Of a stretch of 64,000 nucleotides of DNA, positions 21,523 through 25,400 are shown piece after piece. Location of the stretch: assembly GCA_947085655.1 (NCBI GenBank), contig CAMTXH010000007.1:46085-110084 (forward strand). Reading direction: 5' to 3'. The notes under the pieces are model-generated. The model saw only the letters and a program-made list of their open reading frames with translations, did no database searches and was not told where the DNA came from. Every line of letters starts with the position of its first letter. The first letter of the stretch is position 1. The stretch is from an uncultured Omnitrophica bacterium. Lineage in GTDB: Bacteria; Omnitrophota; Gorgyraeia; JACQQV01. The position numbers were made by a program, and so were the translations under genes.

Positions 21523-21981
21523 TTGAATCCTAGCAAACGCGTCATCACAAAACAGCTGGGTGAACTTTTGAGGGAACGGGGCATTATCAGCAAGGATCAA
21601 CTGGAGGAAGCCCTTAGGATTCAGAAAGAAGGGGGAGGGCTGATCGGGCAGATTCTTGTGAAACTCGGCTACACGACCGAGGAGGAAATCGCCCAGGCCT
21701 TAACCGCCCAGTTCGGGTTTCCGTATCTTCCCCTGAGGAATTATGAAATCGGGAAGGATGTCATCAAACTTGTTCCAGAAAATGTGGCACGGCAGTACTG
21801 TCTGATTCCGGTGGACCGGATCGGGAACGCCCTCACCATCGCCATGTCCAACCCCCTGAATGTTCAGGCCCAGGAGGACATCGAGTTGATTACGAAGTGC
21901 AGAGTCCAGGTCTTTGTCTCCACCATGACCGATATCAACCAGGCGATCGAAAAATGCTATGAAAAGGATGAGTCTTCGTAA
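21523..21981 (+). CDS. Free-standing T2SE-N / MshEN-domain protein (putative c-di-GMP receptor)
   Basis: 152 aa made up only of the GspE/PilB N-terminal domain. It contains the MshEN-type motif 'LGELLRERGIISKDQLEEALRIQ' (RLGxxLxxxGxIxxxxLxxALxxQ). RBS GAAGGAGG, TTG start. Confidence 0.6.
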   Translation: MNPSKRVITKQLGELLRERGIISKDQLEEALRIQKEGGGLIGQILVKLGYTTEEEIAQALTAQFGFPYLPLRNYEIGKDVIKLVPENVARQYCLIPVDRIGNALTIAMSNPLNVQAQEDIELITKCRVQVFVSTMTDINQAIEKCYEKDESS

Positions 21982-21984
21982 CGT

Positions 21985-23700
21985 ATGGCGCCGTCCGAGA
22001 AGAACAAGTTAAGCGCGTTTCTCCTTGAAAAACAGATTGTGGCCCCCGATGTTCTCGACCAGGCGATCCAGGAGCAGAAAAAACGGGGCGGACGGCTGAG
22101 CCGGATCCTCATTGAGATGGGGGCGATCGGTGACAAAGAACTCGTTGCCCTCTTGAGCGAAAATCTCGGCATCCCCCCCGTGGATCTCTCCCGCTTTGAA
22201 ATTGACCCGAACCTTTCAAAAATCGTCTCCCGCGAAATCGCCCTCCATTATGAAATCGTTCCCATCTCCAAAATCGGGAATACACTGACTGTCGCGATGG
22301 CGGATCCCCTGAATCTCTTTGCCGCCGATGAAATCAAGGCGTTGACCGGCCTCGATATCCGGCCGACCATCGCGACGGAACGGGACATTGACGAAGCCCT
22401 CCGGAAGCTTTACGGGGAATCGACGCAGAAGGCGATTGAAAGCGTTGTCCAGAGATACAAGGATGCCGCCAAGCAAAAACTGGAGCTGGTGGTGGCGAAG
22501 GGTGAGCGGGAGGCCGATTTTGAAGAGTTGCTGAAGCTGACCCAGGGCGCACCCGTTATTCAACTCACCCATTTAATGCTGGAAGAGGGGGTCCGGCTCC
22601 GGGCTAGCGACATCATGATTGAGCCGATGCGGGATATCCTCCGGATCCGTTACCGGGTCGACGGGGTCCTCAAGGTCGGCACCGCCCCACCCCGAAGCAT
22701 GCACGAGGCGATTGCCTCGCGGATCAAGGTGATGTCGAACCTTGACATTGCCGAAAGGCGTCTTCCCCAGGACGGCCGCTTCAAAATAAAGATAGAGGGA
22801 CACGAAATCGATTTTCGCGTGTCGACCGTCCCCTCTACTTATGGGGAAAAGGTCGTGATGCGTATTTTGGATAAAACCCAGGCCCCCTTGAGTCTTGATC
22901 CCCTCGGTTTCGAGGAAAAATCCCTCTCCGACATTAAAAATGCGAGTCTCCGGCCGCACGGGATGATTCTTGTCTGCGGTCCGACCGGCGCGGGCAAGAC
23001 CACCACCCTCTATTCCATTCTTAAATATGTGGATACTCCCGAAAAAAACATTGTGACGGTCGAGGACCCGGTCGAGTTCCAGCTGGAGGGGATTAATCAG
23101 GTGGCGGTTCGGAGCGAAATCGGGTTGACTTATGCGGTTGCGCTCCGGTCGATCCTCCGTCAGGATCCCGATATTATCATGGTCGGGGAAATCCGTGATT
23201 TTGAAACCGTGGATGTGGCGATCAAAGCAGCTCTCACAGGGCACCTCGTTTTGAGCACCCTTCATACGACCACCGCCTGCGGCGCCATTATCCGCCTTTT
23301 GAATATGGGGGTCGAGCCTTTTTTGATTACTTCTGCCCTTTCACTCGCCTGTTCCCAGCGCCTTGTCCGCCGCCTCTGCCCCGGCTGCAAAAAACCGTAC
23401 CGGCTTGATCCAAAGCAGGCGGAAAAAATCGGGATTCCTGCGAAATGGGCGGAGGAGACGAAACTCTACAAGGGGGCCGGATGCTCTCAATGCCACAGCA
23501 CCGGGTACAGCGGCAGGATCGGGATTGCCGAGACCGTTCCGATTTCTCCCCGAATCCGTGAACTGATTCTCCAATCCGCCCGGGAAGGGGAATTGGTGGA
23601 GGCGGCCAGGCAGGAAGGGATGATCACGCTTCGCGAGGATGCCCTCCGGAAAGCCGCAAGCGGGAGAACCTCGCTTGAAGAGGTGCTCCGGGTAACCTAA
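21985..23700 (+). CDS. pilB: Type IV pilus assembly ATPase PilB/GspE family (paralogue 1)
   Basis: N-terminal MshEN-type motif ('LSAFLLEKQIVAPDVLDQAIQEQKKRGGRLSRILIEMGAI'). Walker A 'GPTGAGKTTTL'. Tetracysteine zinc motif 'CPGCKKPY ... CSQCHSTGYSGRIGI'. Confidence 0.85.
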   Translation: MAPSEKNKLSAFLLEKQIVAPDVLDQAIQEQKKRGGRLSRILIEMGAIGDKELVALLSENLGIPPVDLSRFEIDPNLSKIVSREIALHYEIVPISKIGNTLTVAMADPLNLFAADEIKALTGLDIRPTIATERDIDEALRKLYGESTQKAIESVVQRYKDAAKQKLELVVAKGEREADFEELLKLTQGAPVIQLTHLMLEEGVRLRASDIMIEPMRDILRIRYRVDGVLKVGTAPPRSMHEAIASRIKVMSNLDIAERRLPQDGRFKIKIEGHEIDFRVSTVPSTYGEKVVMRILDKTQAPLSLDPLGFEEKSLSDIKNASLRPHGMILVCGPTGAGKTTTLYSILKYVDTPEKNIVTVEDPVEFQLEGINQVAVRSEIGLTYAVALRSILRQDPDIIMVGEIRDFETVDVAIKAALTGHLVLSTLHTTTACGAIIRLLNMGVEPFLITSALSLACSQRLVRRLCPGCKKPYRLDPKQAEKIGIPAKWAEETKLYKGAGCSQCHSTGYSGRIGIAETVPISPRIRELILQSAREGELVEAARQEGMITLREDALRKAASGRTSLEEVLRVT

Positions 23701-25400
23701 TGGCTGAGAATTTCCGGGACCGGCTGAATGCGCTTCTGCTTGAACGGAATCTGGTTGACCAGAAGCGGCTGGAACAAGCCCTCGCCCTCCAGAAAAAAAG
23801 AGGGGGGACCTTAAGTAAAATTCTCGTCGAGGAAGGGTGGGTTTCTGAAAAGGAACTTCTTTCTCTTTTGGGAGAGGAGCTGAATATTCCCCCGATCGAT
23901 CTTTCCCGTTTTAAAATCGACCCGCAGGTTGCACGGCTCATTCCGGAACGGCTCGCCCGACAGTACCACGTCATCCCGATCTCCCAGATCGGGGACACCC
24001 TTGTTATTTCGATGGCCGATCCCCTGAATATCTTGGCCATGGACGACCTCCGGATGATGACCCACTACCAGATTGACCCGGTTCTGAGCACGGACAAGGA
24101 TATCCTGGAAGCGATCGACCGGATTTATGCGCCCCAAGACCTCAAAATTTCCCGGATCCTGGAGGGGGTGGAGGTAGAAGCTCCCTCGGAACTCGAGCAG
24201 AAGGAGGAAGAAATTGATCTGGAGACGGTGGCCCGGACACCGGGGAAGGTACCGGTCATCGAAGTGGTCAACCTCATGCTGGTCAGCGCCCTTGACCGGC
24301 GGGCAAGCGACATTCATATTGAACCAGCCGAGACGCATCTTCGAATTCGCTACCGTGTCGACGGCGTGCTTCAGGAATCGATCAATCTTCCCAAGGAAAT
24401 CCAACAGGCGATCATTTCCAGAGTCAAGATCATCTGCGGTTTGGATATCACCGAAAGCCGGCTCCCTCAGGACGGCCGGTTCCGGATCCGTTTCAAGGGG
24501 AGGGAAATCGACTTCCGCGTCTCGGTCCTTCCGATCATAGAGGGGGGAAAGGTGGTCCTCCGGGTTCTGGACCGGAGCGCCATCCGGTTCGGACTGGACC
24601 ATCTCGGTTTCAATCCGGAACCGCTCGCCAAATTCAAAGAGGCGATCCAGGAACCGTACGGGATGCTCCTCGTGACCGGACCGACCGGCTGCGGCAAATC
24701 CACATCCCTCTACTCTGTCCTCCAGATGCTCAACGTCCCGGAGAAGAATTTGACCACGATTGAAGATCCGGTCGAATATCAGATGGAGGGGGTGACCCAG
24801 ATTCAGGTCCATCCGGAGATCGGGCTCACGTTTGCAAGCGGCCTTCGGGCGGTTCTGAGACAAAGCCCGGATGTGATTATGGTCGGCGAAATCCGGGATT
24901 TCGAGACGGCAGACATTGCCGTGAAATCCTCCCTGACAGGCCATCTTCTGTTGAGCACGCTGCATACCAACGACGCCCCGAGCGCCGTGACACGCCTCAT
25001 CGACATGGGAGTAGAGCCGTATCTCATCTCTTCCAGCGTCATTTTGGTCGCCGCACAGCGCCTCTGCCGCGTCATCTGCACTAATTGCAAGGAGAAAGTT
25101 TCCGTCCCGAAAAGTGTCTTGGGGAGAATCGGATACCGTGGTGAGAAAGACAGTTTCTTCCGGGGAAAGGGGTGCCGTAAATGTGCGAATACCGGCTACT
25201 ACGGACGGATGGGAATCCTCGAGATTTTTGAGTTGGATGAGGCAATACGGGATATGATCTTAAACCGCGTTTCGACACCGGAACTCCAGGCCGCAGCCCT
25301 TAAAAAGGGGATGAAAACCATTTTGGACGATGCCCTGAAAAAATTTGAGATGGGCTTGACCACCCTTGAGGAAGTGATGCGGGTGACGGTGCGGGAATAA
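23700..25400 (+). CDS. PilB/GspE-family ATPase (paralogue 2, tandem)
   Basis: Same architecture ('LNALLLERNLVDQKRLEQALALQKKRGGTLSKILVEEGWV', 'GPTGCGKSTSL', 'CTNCKEKV ... CRKCANTGYYGRMGI'). TAATG overlap with paralogue 1. Confidence 0.85.
   Translation: MAENFRDRLNALLLERNLVDQKRLEQALALQKKRGGTLSKILVEEGWVSEKELLSLLGEELNIPPIDLSRFKIDPQVARLIPERLARQYHVIPISQIGDTLVISMADPLNILAMDDLRMMTHYQIDPVLSTDKDILEAIDRIYAPQDLKISRILEGVEVEAPSELEQKEEEIDLETVARTPGKVPVIEVVNLMLVSALDRRASDIHIEPAETHLRIRYRVDGVLQESINLPKEIQQAIISRVKIICGLDITESRLPQDGRFRIRFKGREIDFRVSVLPIIEGGKVVLRVLDRSAIRFGLDHLGFNPEPLAKFKEAIQEPYGMLLVTGPTGCGKSTSLYSVLQMLNVPEKNLTTIEDPVEYQMEGVTQIQVHPEIGLTFASGLRAVLRQSPDVIMVGEIRDFETADIAVKSSLTGHLLLSTLHTNDAPSAVTRLIDMGVEPYLISSSVILVAAQRLCRVICTNCKEKVSVPKSVLGRIGYRGEKDSFFRGKGCRKCANTGYYGRMGILEIFELDEAIRDMILNRVSTPELQAAALKKGMKTILDDALKKFEMGLTTLEEVMRVTVRE

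Follow-up and report, generated by a model that had tools for sequence, protein, structure and literature searches.

A Candidatus Omnitrophota genome was found to carry an MshEN-only open reading frame and two full-length PilB paralogues within one type IVa pilus operon. We put at about one half the probability that the protein encoded by this reading frame (M152) acts as a c-di-GMP sensor in trans for an extension motor with two ATPases, which serves a single PilC/PilMNOQ machine. While M152 keeps the ligand contacts, the MshEN domains fused to the two ATPases (PilB1 and PilB2) have decayed, and judged by their sequences the three domains are not equivalent.

Gene content of the pilus locus

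The features of the window (the whole 64-kb stretch of DNA that was analyzed) on which the argument rests are as follows.

18998..20404, + strand: GGDEF-like protein, HAMP-GAF-GGDEF-like, membrane-anchored, 468 aa (Pfam HAMP, GAF_2, GGDEF)
20416..21501, + strand: PilT retraction ATPase, 361 aa, TTG start (TIGR01420 pilT_fam, 486 bits; cut-off 319)
21523..21981, + strand: M152, free-standing MshEN protein without an ATPase domain, 152 aa (PF05157, NF053729)
21553..21711, + strand: M152 MshEN_N four-helix bundle; motif I QLGELLRERGIISKDQLEEALRIQ, spacer KEGGG, motif II LIGQILVKLGYTTEEEIAQALTAQ
21712..21975, + strand: M152 MshEN_C (N1E-like alpha/beta) subdomain, residues 64-151 (PF05157)
21985..23700, + strand: PilB1 extension-type ATPase, 571 aa; degenerate MshEN N-domain, N2D, ATPase core
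22006..22164, + strand: PilB1 degenerate c-di-GMP motif region, KLSAFLLEKQIVAPDVLDQAIQEQ / RLSRILIEMGAIGDKELVALLSEN
23700..25400, + strand: PilB2, second extension-type ATPase, 566 aa (T2SSE, TIGR02538)
23721..23879, + strand: PilB2 degenerate c-di-GMP motif region, RLNALLLERNLVDQKRLEQALALQ / TLSKILVEEGWVSEKELLSLLGEE
25400..26611, + strand: PilC platform protein, 403 aa (two T2SSF domains, 225.6 bits)
28536-28991 and 29082-29546, + strand: tandem pilin genes (Pfam N_methyl domains)
29479-30615, + strand: PilM (Pfam PilM_2)
30612-31286, + strand: PilN (Pfam PilN, weak)
31279-31851, + strand: PilO (Pfam PilO)
32142-33788, + strand: PilQ-type secretin (Pfam STN, Secretin_N and Secretin)

Profile matches placed PilT, whose TTG start was preceded by a Shine-Dalgarno sequence, directly upstream of the M152-PilB1-PilB2 block and PilC directly downstream. 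The start codon overlapped the preceding stop codon (TAATG) at both the PilB1/PilB2 and the PilB2/PilC junction, and the two ATPase genes are tightly packed and co-transcribed with a single PilC (25400..26611), the only one in the window. The first-pass annotation had described an MshEN-only ORF of 152 aa between pilT and pilB, followed by two TAATG-coupled full-length PilB paralogues; both were borne out, at 21523-21981 and at 21985-23700 and 23700-25400, respectively, and the three N-terminal peptides which it quoted were all located in the ORFs. A domain scan of essentially every long ORF in the 64 kb gave one PilC, two pilins, PilM/N/O and one secretin, with no second pilus or secretion machine, in agreement with the earlier statement that no T2SS was present to explain a second GspE-type ATPase. 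PilM, PilN, PilO and the secretin constitute the single alignment/secretin set that both PilB ATPases would serve. The pilin genes have a strong promoter-like site (28372-28400; 11/12 consensus positions matched, TG present), and the remaining genes of the window comprised a polysaccharide-synthesis cluster and housekeeping genes.

Conservation of the cassette in Omnitrophota

The gene order degenerate-GGDEF / PilT / MshEN / PilB1 / PilB2 / PilC was recovered from 48 independent (non-redundant) Omnitrophota loci, retrieved with M152 as bait, so that Omnitrophota pilus loci without M152 were unsampled. MshEN-PilB1-PilB2-PilC was present in 38/38 loci reaching far enough, and the GGDEF-like protein and PilT were upstream in all 40 loci which extended sufficiently in that direction, with median intergenic gaps across the cassette of 4-14 nt. 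No free MshEN ORF was present in 70 ordinary single-PilB loci. With respect to wider distribution, the named members of the M152 family were all from Omnitrophota except one labelled only 'bacterium', which lay outside a pilus context, and most of the members examined in context adjoined a PilB pair.

This conservation bears on whether the 152-aa ORF could be a fragment or pseudogene of a third PilB, or a PilB1 N-terminus produced by stop-codon read-through, as the shared frame of the two ORFs in the window (TAA CGT between them) might suggest. The 48 orthologues measured 134-160 aa and occupied the identical locus position, M152 has its own start (TTG, with GGAGG shortly upstream as its Shine-Dalgarno sequence), and an in-frame pair occurred in 12/46 loci, approximately the one-third expected by chance. 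In addition, dN was lowest for M152 among the cassette genes; dS was saturated. Such an origin is effectively refuted and is assigned a negligible probability. Of the cassette proteins, M152 experiences the strongest purifying selection, and among the regulatory parts it is the best conserved, with a mean pairwise identity of 64% as compared to 47-49% for the PilB N-domains.

The free-standing MshEN protein

M152 matched both the Pfam MshEN model PF05157 (77.7 bits, cut-off 23.1) and the NCBIfam c-di-GMP-motif model NF053729 (63.6 bits, cut-off 38). Of ten ligand-contact positions (L2, G3, L17, L21 and Q24 in each of the two motifs), a mean of 9.9 were retained across the 48 orthologues, in which G13, Q34, G42 and Q63 were invariant and the Leu/Ile positions of MshEN_N conserved. 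Position 1 of motif II was Leu in 46/48 orthologues, and position 1 of motif I was Q/T/K in most. The window copy also carried a unique Arg at core position 7, found in 1/48 orthologues, which counts against c-di-GMP sensing. The MshEN_C subdomain, whose invariant residues include E86, N87, V88, Q91, Y92, C93, D98, E118, D119 and E121, is likely the protein-docking part. An AF2 model (pLDDT 87) adopted the MshEN fold, and its best PDB match by Foldseek was 5HTL, MshEN with bound c-di-GMP (TM 0.78, rmsd 2.1 A), while the best PDB sequence match was Thermus PilF (E = 2e-45). The earlier suggestion that the stand-alone MshEN domain could serve as a c-di-GMP adaptor fits the conservation, the retained contacts and the predicted fold well.

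Fused MshEN domains of PilB1 and PilB2

All three domains passed PF05157, with scores of 77.7, 90.8 and 85.6 bits for M152, PilB1 and PilB2, respectively (E = 7e-22 to 6e-26), although this model spans the C-terminal subdomain (about residues 61-150) and the 24-residue motifs lie outside it. NF053729, which does span the motifs, was also passed by PilB1 (42.4 bits) and PilB2 (44.9 bits), a result which is in itself no proof of binding. When this model was calibrated on Thermus PilF, the known binders GSPII-B and GSPII-C scored 61.1 and 59.1 bits and the known non-binder GSPII-A scored 52.5 bits, so that M152 lay above all three and both PilB N-domains below the non-binder. The first-pass annotation had claimed the c-di-GMP motif for all three N-termini; this held at the level of the model, but not at key ligand-contact positions of PilB1 and PilB2. 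Gly-3 of motif I was lost in every orthologue of both families, and in motif II Gln-24 was usually replaced by Glu and position 1 was usually Ser. The window PilB1 had Gly-3 to Ser in both motifs, Gly-10 to Gln and Gln-24 to Asn, and the window PilB2 had Gly-3 to Asn and Ser, Gly-10 to Asn, Arg-1 to Thr and Gln-24 to Glu. Family means were 7.2/10 contact residues retained for PilB1 and 6.2/10 for PilB2. [quoted passage not shown]

It is unlikely, in our assessment, that M152 senses no ligand and has instead a structural or adaptor function, as an N1 domain provided in trans which would link the ATPases to PilM/PilC or hold the paralogues together; the conservation of its motif residues would then reflect only their part in forming the four-helix bundle. 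Several observations are compatible with such a role, and all but the conservation of the C-subdomain also weigh against c-di-GMP sensing. Even a perfect motif is no guarantee of binding, as shown by reconstruction of GSPII-A, in which it can be silenced by the N-cap and inter-subdomain contacts (PMC12002112). Motif I position 1 is not R/K/L in most M152 orthologues, and the C-subdomain was conserved to the same degree as the N-subdomain (mean pairwise identity 65% and 63%). In addition, no active diguanylate cyclase was found in the window or in approximately 0.8 Mb of flanking Omnitrophota sequence. The adjoining GGDEF-like protein, whose gene comes first in the conserved cassette, has ERDRF in place of the active-site motif; canonical GG(D/E)EF was present in none of 39 aligned orthologues, and the RxxD I-site Arg was missing from the copies inspected by eye. 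GGDEF and PilZ domains are, however, encoded elsewhere in Omnitrophota genomes. Against a purely structural role, the invariant G13, G42, Q34 and Q63 are exactly the backbone and side-chain ligand contacts, these positions vary freely in the copies fused to PilB despite a common fold, and in some Omnitrophota variants (P0123) the ligand-binding MshEN_N module alone is duplicated.

The two extension ATPases

PilB1 and PilB2 were 47.6% identical and scored 456 and 440 bits against T2SSE, and 638 and 635 bits against TIGR02538, the PilB1 score being slightly below the cut-off of 675.65. As had been claimed for the two ORFs, both kept Walker A (GPTGAGKT and GPTGCGKS) and the four Cys of the zinc site, and all catalytic motifs were intact in the orthologues (46 for PilB1, 36 for PilB2): the Walker A Lys, Asp box, Walker B Glu, second His-box His, tetra-Cys site and conserved QDGR Arg. 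Family-specific differences were DI(L/M)IEP in PilB1 versus DIHIEP in PilB2, and a His box of TGH versus TGQ. In a neighbor-joining tree whose named references were limited to E. coli GspE and HofB, each orthologue clade had 100% bootstrap and neither PilB grouped with GspE, while pairing of PilB1 and PilB2 as sister paralogues was weak (57%). The duplication of the extension ATPase predates the divergence of the sampled Omnitrophota lineages. An identity as TfpB was rejected for both (NF053534, 443 bits versus a cut-off of 850).

Co-variation of the cassette proteins was analyzed by partial Mantel correlation, the significance of which is inflated on related sequences, and it was graded as weak evidence. 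M152 correlated with the PilB2 N-domain (r = 0.53) and with the GGDEF-like protein (r = 0.54), which in turn correlated with the PilB2 N-domain (r = 0.67), and the PilB1 and PilB2 cores correlated with each other (r = 0.44; p about 2e-4 in each case). M152 did not correlate with the PilB1 N-domain (r = -0.03).

These data bear on how the two ATPases are used. That they alternate, or perform different tasks on one platform, each as a homo-hexamer, has in our view slightly less than an even chance; examples would be initiation versus processive extension, or two different downstream pilins. There is a precedent in Acinetobacter baylyi PilB and TfpB (PMC11656802), the cluster has two pilin genes, the family-specific motifs differ, and M152 co-varies with the N-domain of PilB2 only. 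Nevertheless, pilin number varies by locus (three in L003) while the ATPase pair is constant. A single obligate hetero-hexameric motor, for example of alternating subunits, appears doubtful, if somewhat less so than a purely structural M152. The start/stop overlap and tight packing across loci favor equal production, the paralogues always occur together (38/38), both are catalytically intact, and their cores co-vary, although the latter would be expected anyway for two ATPases on one machine. No precedent for a hetero-hexamer in the PilB/GspE family was found in the literature, where one review poses it solely as an open question (PMC11656802), and in A. baylyi, the one studied two-ATPase pilus, the roles are partly separable (PMC11656802). 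In the orthologue alignments, the catalytic residues showed no complementary losses of the kind that would make hetero-oligomers obligatory.

We regard it as quite improbable that M152 regulates PilT, and hence retraction, in place of the PilBs. Its gene directly follows pilT in 43 loci (median gap 9 nt), which counts against PilB-directed action, and PilT itself lacks an N1 domain, so that M152 would supply it with a c-di-GMP input. However, five divergent loci (L068, L073, L075, L077 and L084) keep the MshEN-PilB-PilB-PilC block without an adjacent PilT, L073 and L075 have a second free MshEN between PilB2 and PilC, and the co-variation of M152 is with the PilB2 N-domain.

Proposed mechanism and comparison with known systems

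In the reading that we prefer, sensing in trans for the extension motor, the four-helix bundle of M152 would bind c-di-GMP, probably with high affinity because motif II begins with Leu, as in Thermus GSPII-B, where 6 nM binding goes with Leu at this position (PMC11731258). M152 would then relay the signal in trans. Its N1E-like C-subdomain may dock on the PilB ATPases, the co-variation pointing to the PilB2 N-domain, and/or on the PilM platform; GSPII/N1E domains of related ATPases touch PilM/GspL-type platform proteins (PMC6325625). Docking would gate or stimulate pilus extension on the one PilC/PilMNOQ machine, and the membrane-anchored, catalytically dead GGDEF protein is probably part of the same regulatory module.

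As in Vibrio cholerae MshE (5HTL; Wang et al. 2016, PMC5013675), M152 has a two-subdomain fold and tandem 24-residue motifs with a 5-residue spacer, and conserves Gly-3, Leu-17, Leu-21 and Gln-24 in both motifs. In MshE the sensor is fused to the ATPase that it regulates, whereas here the intact MshEN stands alone as a 17-kDa protein and the fused copies are degenerate; the position-1 Arg of the motifs is also replaced in M152, by Q/T/K in motif I and Leu in motif II. Thermus thermophilus PilF likewise has three functionally diverged MshEN-type domains in one pilus extension system (PMC11731258, PMC12002112, PMC6325625), but in cis, while here they are distributed over three polypeptides and two ATPases. 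In PilF, GSPII-A is a non-binder, GSPII-B has Lys/Leu at position 1 and an affinity of 6 nM (PMC11731258, PMC12002112), and GSPII-C, with an affinity of about 0.5 uM, is required for PilMN stimulation (PMC6325625). M152 resembles GSPII-B in its chemistry (Leu at motif II position 1), and the PilB1/2 N-domains resemble GSPII-A in their decay (Ser at position 1, Gly-3 and Gln-24 lost). By sequence score, M152 does not appear specifically related to GSPII-B (34 bits, versus 57-65 for GSPII-A and C and 97 for the Geobacter PilB N-domain).

Two extension-type ATPases, PilB and TfpB, apparently serve one type IVa machine in A. baylyi as well (PMC11656802), but PilB1 and PilB2 are in tandem, translationally coupled and present in every cassette locus sampled, and the extra small protein of the Omnitrophota cassette is an MshEN domain. 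In the Xanthomonas FimX-PilZ-PilB system (PMC8389850; 7LKM), c-di-GMP control operates through separate proteins, PilB itself being non-binding, as may be the case here, and that system, too, has a degenerate GGDEF-containing protein; the M152 model aligned to the X. citri PilB N-domain with a TM of 0.71. Xanthomonas uses an EAL sensor (FimX) and a PilZ adaptor, whereas the putative sensor here is MshEN, and neither PilZ nor EAL is encoded in the Omnitrophota pilus cluster.

No description of twin PilBs with decayed fused MshEN domains and a separate intact MshEN was found in the literature, nor was any report of a role for non-ATPase MshEN proteins. MshEN domains also exist in proteins that lack T2SSE, and fusions to many other domain types have been listed (Wang et al. 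2016, PMC5013675). M152 is in this respect like uncharacterized non-ATPase MshEN proteins such as M. xanthus MXAN_7500, which carries the motifs, and public data contain many MshEN-only cluster representatives of 144-180 aa.

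Organization of the pilus cluster

The forward (+) strand of the window carries a single type IVa pilus cluster at 18998-33788, with the following genes.

18998-20404, +: HAMP-GAF-GGDEF-like membrane protein (the GGDEF-like protein)
20416-21501, +: PilT, retraction ATPase family TIGR01420, 486 bits
21523-21981, +: M152, a free-standing protein of 152 residues, MshEN only; TTG start with GGAGG a short way upstream
21985-23700, +: PilB1
23700-25400, +: PilB2
25400-26611, +: PilC
26406-28295, +: TPR/PMT_2 protein
28536-29546, +: two pilins
29479-33788, +: PilM, PilN, PilO and secretin

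The first-pass annotation, which had described a free MshEN reading frame followed by two TAATG-coupled PilB paralogues, proved accurate on this layout in every particular; the TAATG overlap is found at both the PilB1/PilB2 and the PilB2/PilC junction. Terminator-like sites across the cassette were in no excess over shuffled sequence in a simple terminator scan, and the first pilin gene is preceded by a strong promoter-like site. PilT, PilC, pilins, PilMNO and secretin are encoded alongside both PilBs, a context repeated in other Omnitrophota loci. Outside the pilus cluster the window holds housekeeping genes and, at 1-17.7 kb, a cluster for polysaccharide synthesis, and no second pilus or secretion machine was found in the 64 kb. 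The source is Candidatus Omnitrophota, and almost every close homologue of M152 with a source name is recorded as Omnitrophota or Omnitrophica.

Conservation of the cassette

One genome per species was scanned using M152 as bait and the loci were annotated by our own ORF calling and BLAST, which identified an M152 orthologue (57-84% identity) in 48 non-redundant Omnitrophota loci, a sample that only pilus loci carrying M152 could enter. The order M152-PilB1-PilB2-PilC was present in all 38 loci extending far enough, with the GGDEF-like protein and PilT upstream in 40 of 40, intergenic gaps of median 4-14 nt, and the same gene order recovered from two exact-protein look-ups. The first PilB was always the PilB1 orthologue and the second always the PilB2 orthologue. 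A PilB2-anchored metagenome scan, used solely as a negative control, yielded mostly single PilB-PilC loci of 44-50% identity, probably from other phyla, and a free MshEN reading frame was present in none of 70 such ordinary single-PilB loci. Many MAGs labelled "uncultured Planctomycetia bacterium" (L009, L010, L022, L024, L027, L029, L030, L033 and others) carry the full Omnitrophota cassette, with 60-69% M152 identity, and are probably mislabelled Omnitrophota.

Mean pairwise identity across the cassette was 67% for PilT, 64% for M152, 60% for PilB2, 58% for PilB1 and 58% for PilC, falling to 47-49% for the PilB N-domains and 44% for the GGDEF-like protein. M152 is therefore about as conserved as PilT and far above the PilB N-domains, and it also had the lowest dN of the cassette when compared with the closest locus, synonymous sites being saturated. 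This identity together with the lowest dN establishes M152 as a real gene under strong selection. That it might be a pseudogene or fragment was ruled out, since in 48 loci it is conserved in sequence as well as in length and position. In the window M152 and PilB1 share a reading frame (TAA CGT ATG, 21979-21987), as a read-through fusion of the two would have it; the genes are in frame in only 12 of 46 loci, which is chance level, so read-through is not a conserved feature, the fusion was rejected, and the shared frame in the window is probably a coincidence.

Sequence motifs and predicted fold of the MshEN domains

All three N-termini matched the MshEN family PF05157 (77.7, 90.8 and 85.6 bits for M152, PilB1 and PilB2, cut-off 23.1) and the c-di-GMP_motif model NF053729 (63.6, 42.4 and 44.9 bits, cut-off 38). 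The latter was calibrated on the three MshEN-type domains of Thermus PilF, as follows.

Calibration of NF053729 on Thermus PilF domains
GSPII-B: 61.1 bits, binder
GSPII-C: 59.1 bits, binder
GSPII-A: 52.5 bits, non-binder

M152 scored above both Thermus binders, while PilB1 and PilB2 scored under the proven non-binder GSPII-A. Passing NF053729 is not proof of binding, since GSPII-A passes too, and above both PilB copies; as a practical warning, a match to a c-di-GMP-motif HMM alone does not show that a domain binds the nucleotide. The HMM check proposed in the first-pass annotation was thus passed by all three domains but does not separate binders from non-binders.

In each 24-residue motif c-di-GMP is contacted by Leu-2, Gly-3, Leu-17, Leu-21 and Gln-24, and the two motifs of a domain lie five residues apart (Wang 2016). 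Work on Thermus PilF indicates that position 1 may be R, K or L (PMC11731258, PMC12002112), with Leu at this position accompanying 6 nM binding by GSPII-B (PMC11731258); that replacing Gly-3 by Ala lowers affinity about 30-fold; and that binding is lost with Ser at position 1 of motif II and requires Gln-24 (PMC12002112). Domains were compared with the consensus (R/K/L)LGxx(L/V/I)(L/V/I)xxG(L/V/I)(L/V/I)xxxxLxxxLxxQ, occurring twice with a 5-residue spacer.

M152 has the 5-residue spacer and keeps L2, G3, L17, L21 and Q24 in both motifs. Across its 48 orthologues a mean of 9.9 of the 10 contact residues are kept, G13 and Q34 of motif I and G42 and Q63 of motif II (M152 numbering) are invariant, and motif II begins with Leu in 46. 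Position 1 of motif I is Q in the window and Q, T, K or R in the family, as against R, K or L in the consensus. With respect to the PilB N-domains, the mean number of contact residues kept was 7.2 of 10 for PilB1 and 6.2 of 10 for PilB2. Gly-3 of motif I is missing in all PilB1 (46) and PilB2 (36) orthologues, and in motif II Gln-24 is mostly Glu and position 1 mostly Ser or Asn. Both N-domains fail the two-motif consensus, and matching changes weaken or abolish binding in the GSPII-A experiments. The first-pass annotation had read the 24-residue motif in each of the three N-termini; for PilB1 and PilB2 this did not hold, given the departures from the consensus at Gly-3 and Gln-24. By their motifs the three domains cannot be treated as equivalent, and those fused to PilB look like decayed copies.

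The AlphaFold2 model of M152 (pLDDT 87.1) has helices at residues 4-18, 24-37, 41-47 and 53-64 and, after these, an alpha/beta subdomain, and its best Foldseek match was 5HTL, V. cholerae MshEN with c-di-GMP (TM 0.78, rmsd 2.1 A). In the window M152, residue 17 (21571-21573), which occupies hydrophobic-core position 7 of motif I, is Arg, where the other 47 orthologues have L, I, V or M, and once Q. The Arg is either a change specific to the strain or an error in sequencing.

The two PilB ATPases

PilB1 and PilB2 share 47.6% identity, and both have the N1-N2-CTD architecture with Walker A, Asp box, Walker B, His box and tetra-Cys site. Across orthologues (46 PilB1, 36 PilB2) the Walker A Lys, Asp box, Walker B Glu and tetra-Cys site are kept, as are the second His-box His and the conserved QDGR Arg. 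The first His-box His is usually Gln in the PilB2 family (TGQ versus TGH of PilB1), the window PilB2 having His, and the families also differ in DI(L/M)IEP for PilB1 versus DIHIEP for PilB2.

On the ATPase family models, PilB1 and PilB2 scored 638.2 and 634.9 bits with TIGR02538 (PilB), over the full length and just under the equivalog cut-off of 675.65; 595.4 and 601.6 on TIGR02533 (GspE), under the cut-off of 630.25; and 442.7 and 443.7 on NF053534 (TfpB), far under the cut-off of 850. In a neighbour-joining tree of ATPase cores the PilB1 and PilB2 clades each received 100% bootstrap and were weakly sister (57%), with E. coli GspE, HofB and the PilBs of other phyla outside both; the tree held few named references and a single GspE, and deep placement is accordingly weak. 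Because the orthologue clades are separate at 100% and their positions are constant across loci, the PilB duplication is, on this tree, older than the divergence of the sampled Omnitrophota lineages.

That either PilB serves a type II secretion, competence or TfpB system was rejected, both being below the GspE, ComGA and TfpB cut-offs, a conclusion also favoured by the position of GspE and HofB in the tree and by the lack of a second machine in the window. The earlier statement that the cluster holds no T2SS genes was confirmed, GspC, GspK, GspL and GspM being absent from the window, and neither paralogue grouped with a T2SS ATPase, the single sampled E. coli GspE falling outside both clades. 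An arrangement of the Thermus/Deinococcus PilF type, with three GSPII domains on one ATPase, was ruled out by the presence of one MshEN domain per polypeptide. PilB1 and PilB2 may form either a hetero-hexamer or separate rings.

The GGDEF-like protein and sources of c-di-GMP

The GGDEF-like protein heads the cassette in 40 of 40 loci reaching that far (from L001, L003 and L005-L052). Its active-site motif is ERDRF in the window and SGDEF, SGDTF, GPDEF, GADEF or others among 39 aligned orthologues, none of which has canonical GG(D/E)EF. In copies inspected by eye, the upstream GTP-binding positions look altered and the I-site Arg is missing. A local source of c-di-GMP at the head of the cassette was thus ruled out by the degenerate motif in all 39 aligned orthologues; the protein is predicted not to be a cyclase, and may be a scaffold or receptor instead. 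Neither the window nor ~0.8 Mb of Omnitrophota sequence flanking the cassette contained a canonical GG(D/E)EF protein. GGDEF and PilZ domains are present elsewhere in Omnitrophota genomes (West-Roberts preprint).

Co-variation and a proposed mechanism

Mirror-tree analysis was carried out after regressing out the distances of PilT and PilC. Correlations were 0.53 for M152 with the PilB2 N-domain, 0.54 for M152 with the GGDEF-like protein, 0.67 for the GGDEF-like protein with the PilB2 N-domain and 0.44 for the PilB1 core with the PilB2 core (permutation p ~2e-4 for each), and -0.03 for M152 with the PilB1 N-domain. Related sequences readily give false positives in such a test, so the co-variation cluster of M152, the PilB2 N-domain and the GGDEF-like protein is suggestive and is taken as a lead only.

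At the level of sequence, the cassette combines a putative sensor motif that is intact in the free protein and decayed in the fused ones with two paralogues predicted to be catalytically intact and one platform. On the reading we favour, M152 would bind c-di-GMP and act in trans on the extension motor, docking through its N1E-like C-subdomain; N1E-type domains in related systems contact PilM/GspL-type proteins and are needed for stimulation of the ATPase by the platform (PMC6325625). In the fullest form of this reading, to which we give a probability of about 15%, the Omnitrophota extension motor would combine an obligate hetero-hexamer of PilB1 and PilB2 with a dissociable, high-affinity c-di-GMP-sensing MshEN subunit, the three polypeptides co-evolving and the subunit possibly anchored at the membrane by the HAMP-GAF protein with the dead GGDEF domain. 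If true, the PilB/GspE family would gain its first motor that is hetero-oligomeric and has a split sensor, and this motor would be a natural "domain-in-trans" system showing the mechanical role of the N1/MshEN domain.

Fused MshEN sensors are already known from MshE, M. xanthus PilB and C. perfringens PilB2, as are three GSPII domains in cis in Thermus PilF (PMC11731258), a single pilus served by two extension motors, PilB and TfpB, in A. baylyi (PMC11656802), and c-di-GMP control through separate proteins in Xanthomonas FimX-PilZ-PilB (PMC8389850). The literature also records ATPase-less MshEN proteins (Wang 2016, PMC5013675), which are uncharacterised. Two Omnitrophota genomics papers mention type IVa pili, and neither mentions PilB or c-di-GMP; literature on stand-alone MshEN, tandem pilB and Omnitrophota pili, searched mostly outside subscription journals, held no description of the cassette. 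ATP hydrolysis by C. perfringens PilB2 was unchanged on titration with c-di-GMP, and the effects of equivalent MshEN mutations differed between V. cholerae MshE and the PilB of M. xanthus (PMC11656802). Since a putative sensor occurs naturally apart from the ATPases, assays on individually purified proteins could address binding, docking and stimulation one by one. The always-paired tandem PilB genes likewise offer a clean test case for hetero-hexameric extension ATPases, a question already raised for PilB/TfpB (PMC11656802). Omnitrophota are ultra-small and uncultivated, and type IVa pili have been proposed to underlie a host-attached, predatory or parasitic lifestyle (Seymour et al. 2023), so regulation of the pilus matters for their biology.

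Divergent relatives and other ATPase-less MshEN proteins

Related loci departed from the cassette as follows.

L068: REC-MshEN-PilB-PilB-PilC
L072: GAF-PilT-MshEN-PilB
L073 and L075: additional free MshEN between PilB2 and PilC
L054: ATPase-less protein of 359 residues with three MshEN matches, then PilB-PilT-PilB-PilC

The second free MshEN genes (11034-11486 in L073, 7716-8171 in L075) each score 56-57 bits on NF053729, giving these loci two ATPases and two free putative sensors. In the L075 copy the motifs start with the hydrophobic residues L and F, and Gly-3 and Gln-24 are kept in both. The L054 cluster (6798-12625) is from an Omnitrophota MAG; both its PilBs group with Nitrospirota-type PilBs, outside the PilB1 and PilB2 clades, and it looks like an independently arisen cluster of free MshEN plus two PilBs.

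Some versions of M152 of 210-220 residues have two MshEN_N modules. The longer relatives P0123, P0139, P0146 and P0149 (204-249 residues) carry an extra MshEN_N-like four-helix module before MshEN_N and MshEN_C, and the full motifs kept in both modules of P0123 suggest two predicted c-di-GMP sites. Proteins of 305-347 residues directly upstream of a single PilB (L076, L078-L080, L082, L083) are MshEN_C-like at the C-terminus only (~23-29% identity to M152), their N-terminal part being non-MshEN, and are a separate ATPase-less family. MshEN-only proteins of 144-180 residues are common among public cluster representatives; four of the five named are from Omnitrophota, and the fifth is labelled just "bacterium", without pilus context.

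Neighbouring genes

The protein at 26406-28295, between pilC and the pilins, is a multi-pass membrane protein with a PMT_2 (ArnT/protein-mannosyltransferase-like) region and a C-terminal TPR array, and may be a pilin glycosyltransferase; read from the listed TTG, the gene shares ~200 nt with pilC, which makes a later start codon probable. Immediately before the cassette, 17757-18665 encodes an HD_5/HD-GYP-like protein with HN in place of HD ("LLHNIGM") and no recognisable HHE...GYP motif, on which grounds it looks like a dead phosphodiesterase; its position is not conserved in L001 or L003. At 55099-57388 a CdaA-type c-di-AMP synthase (DAC domain and CdaA N-terminal TM domain) is followed by an overlapping DHH/DHHA1 protein, and the two may form a pair for c-di-AMP synthesis and degradation. 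The large surface-polysaccharide cluster directly upstream of the pilus locus (1-17691) encodes a Wzy_C ligase/polymerase, a flippase, methyltransferases and at least 8 glycosyltransferases, together with a DegT aminotransferase, WbqC, PIG-L and a WecA-like GT4.
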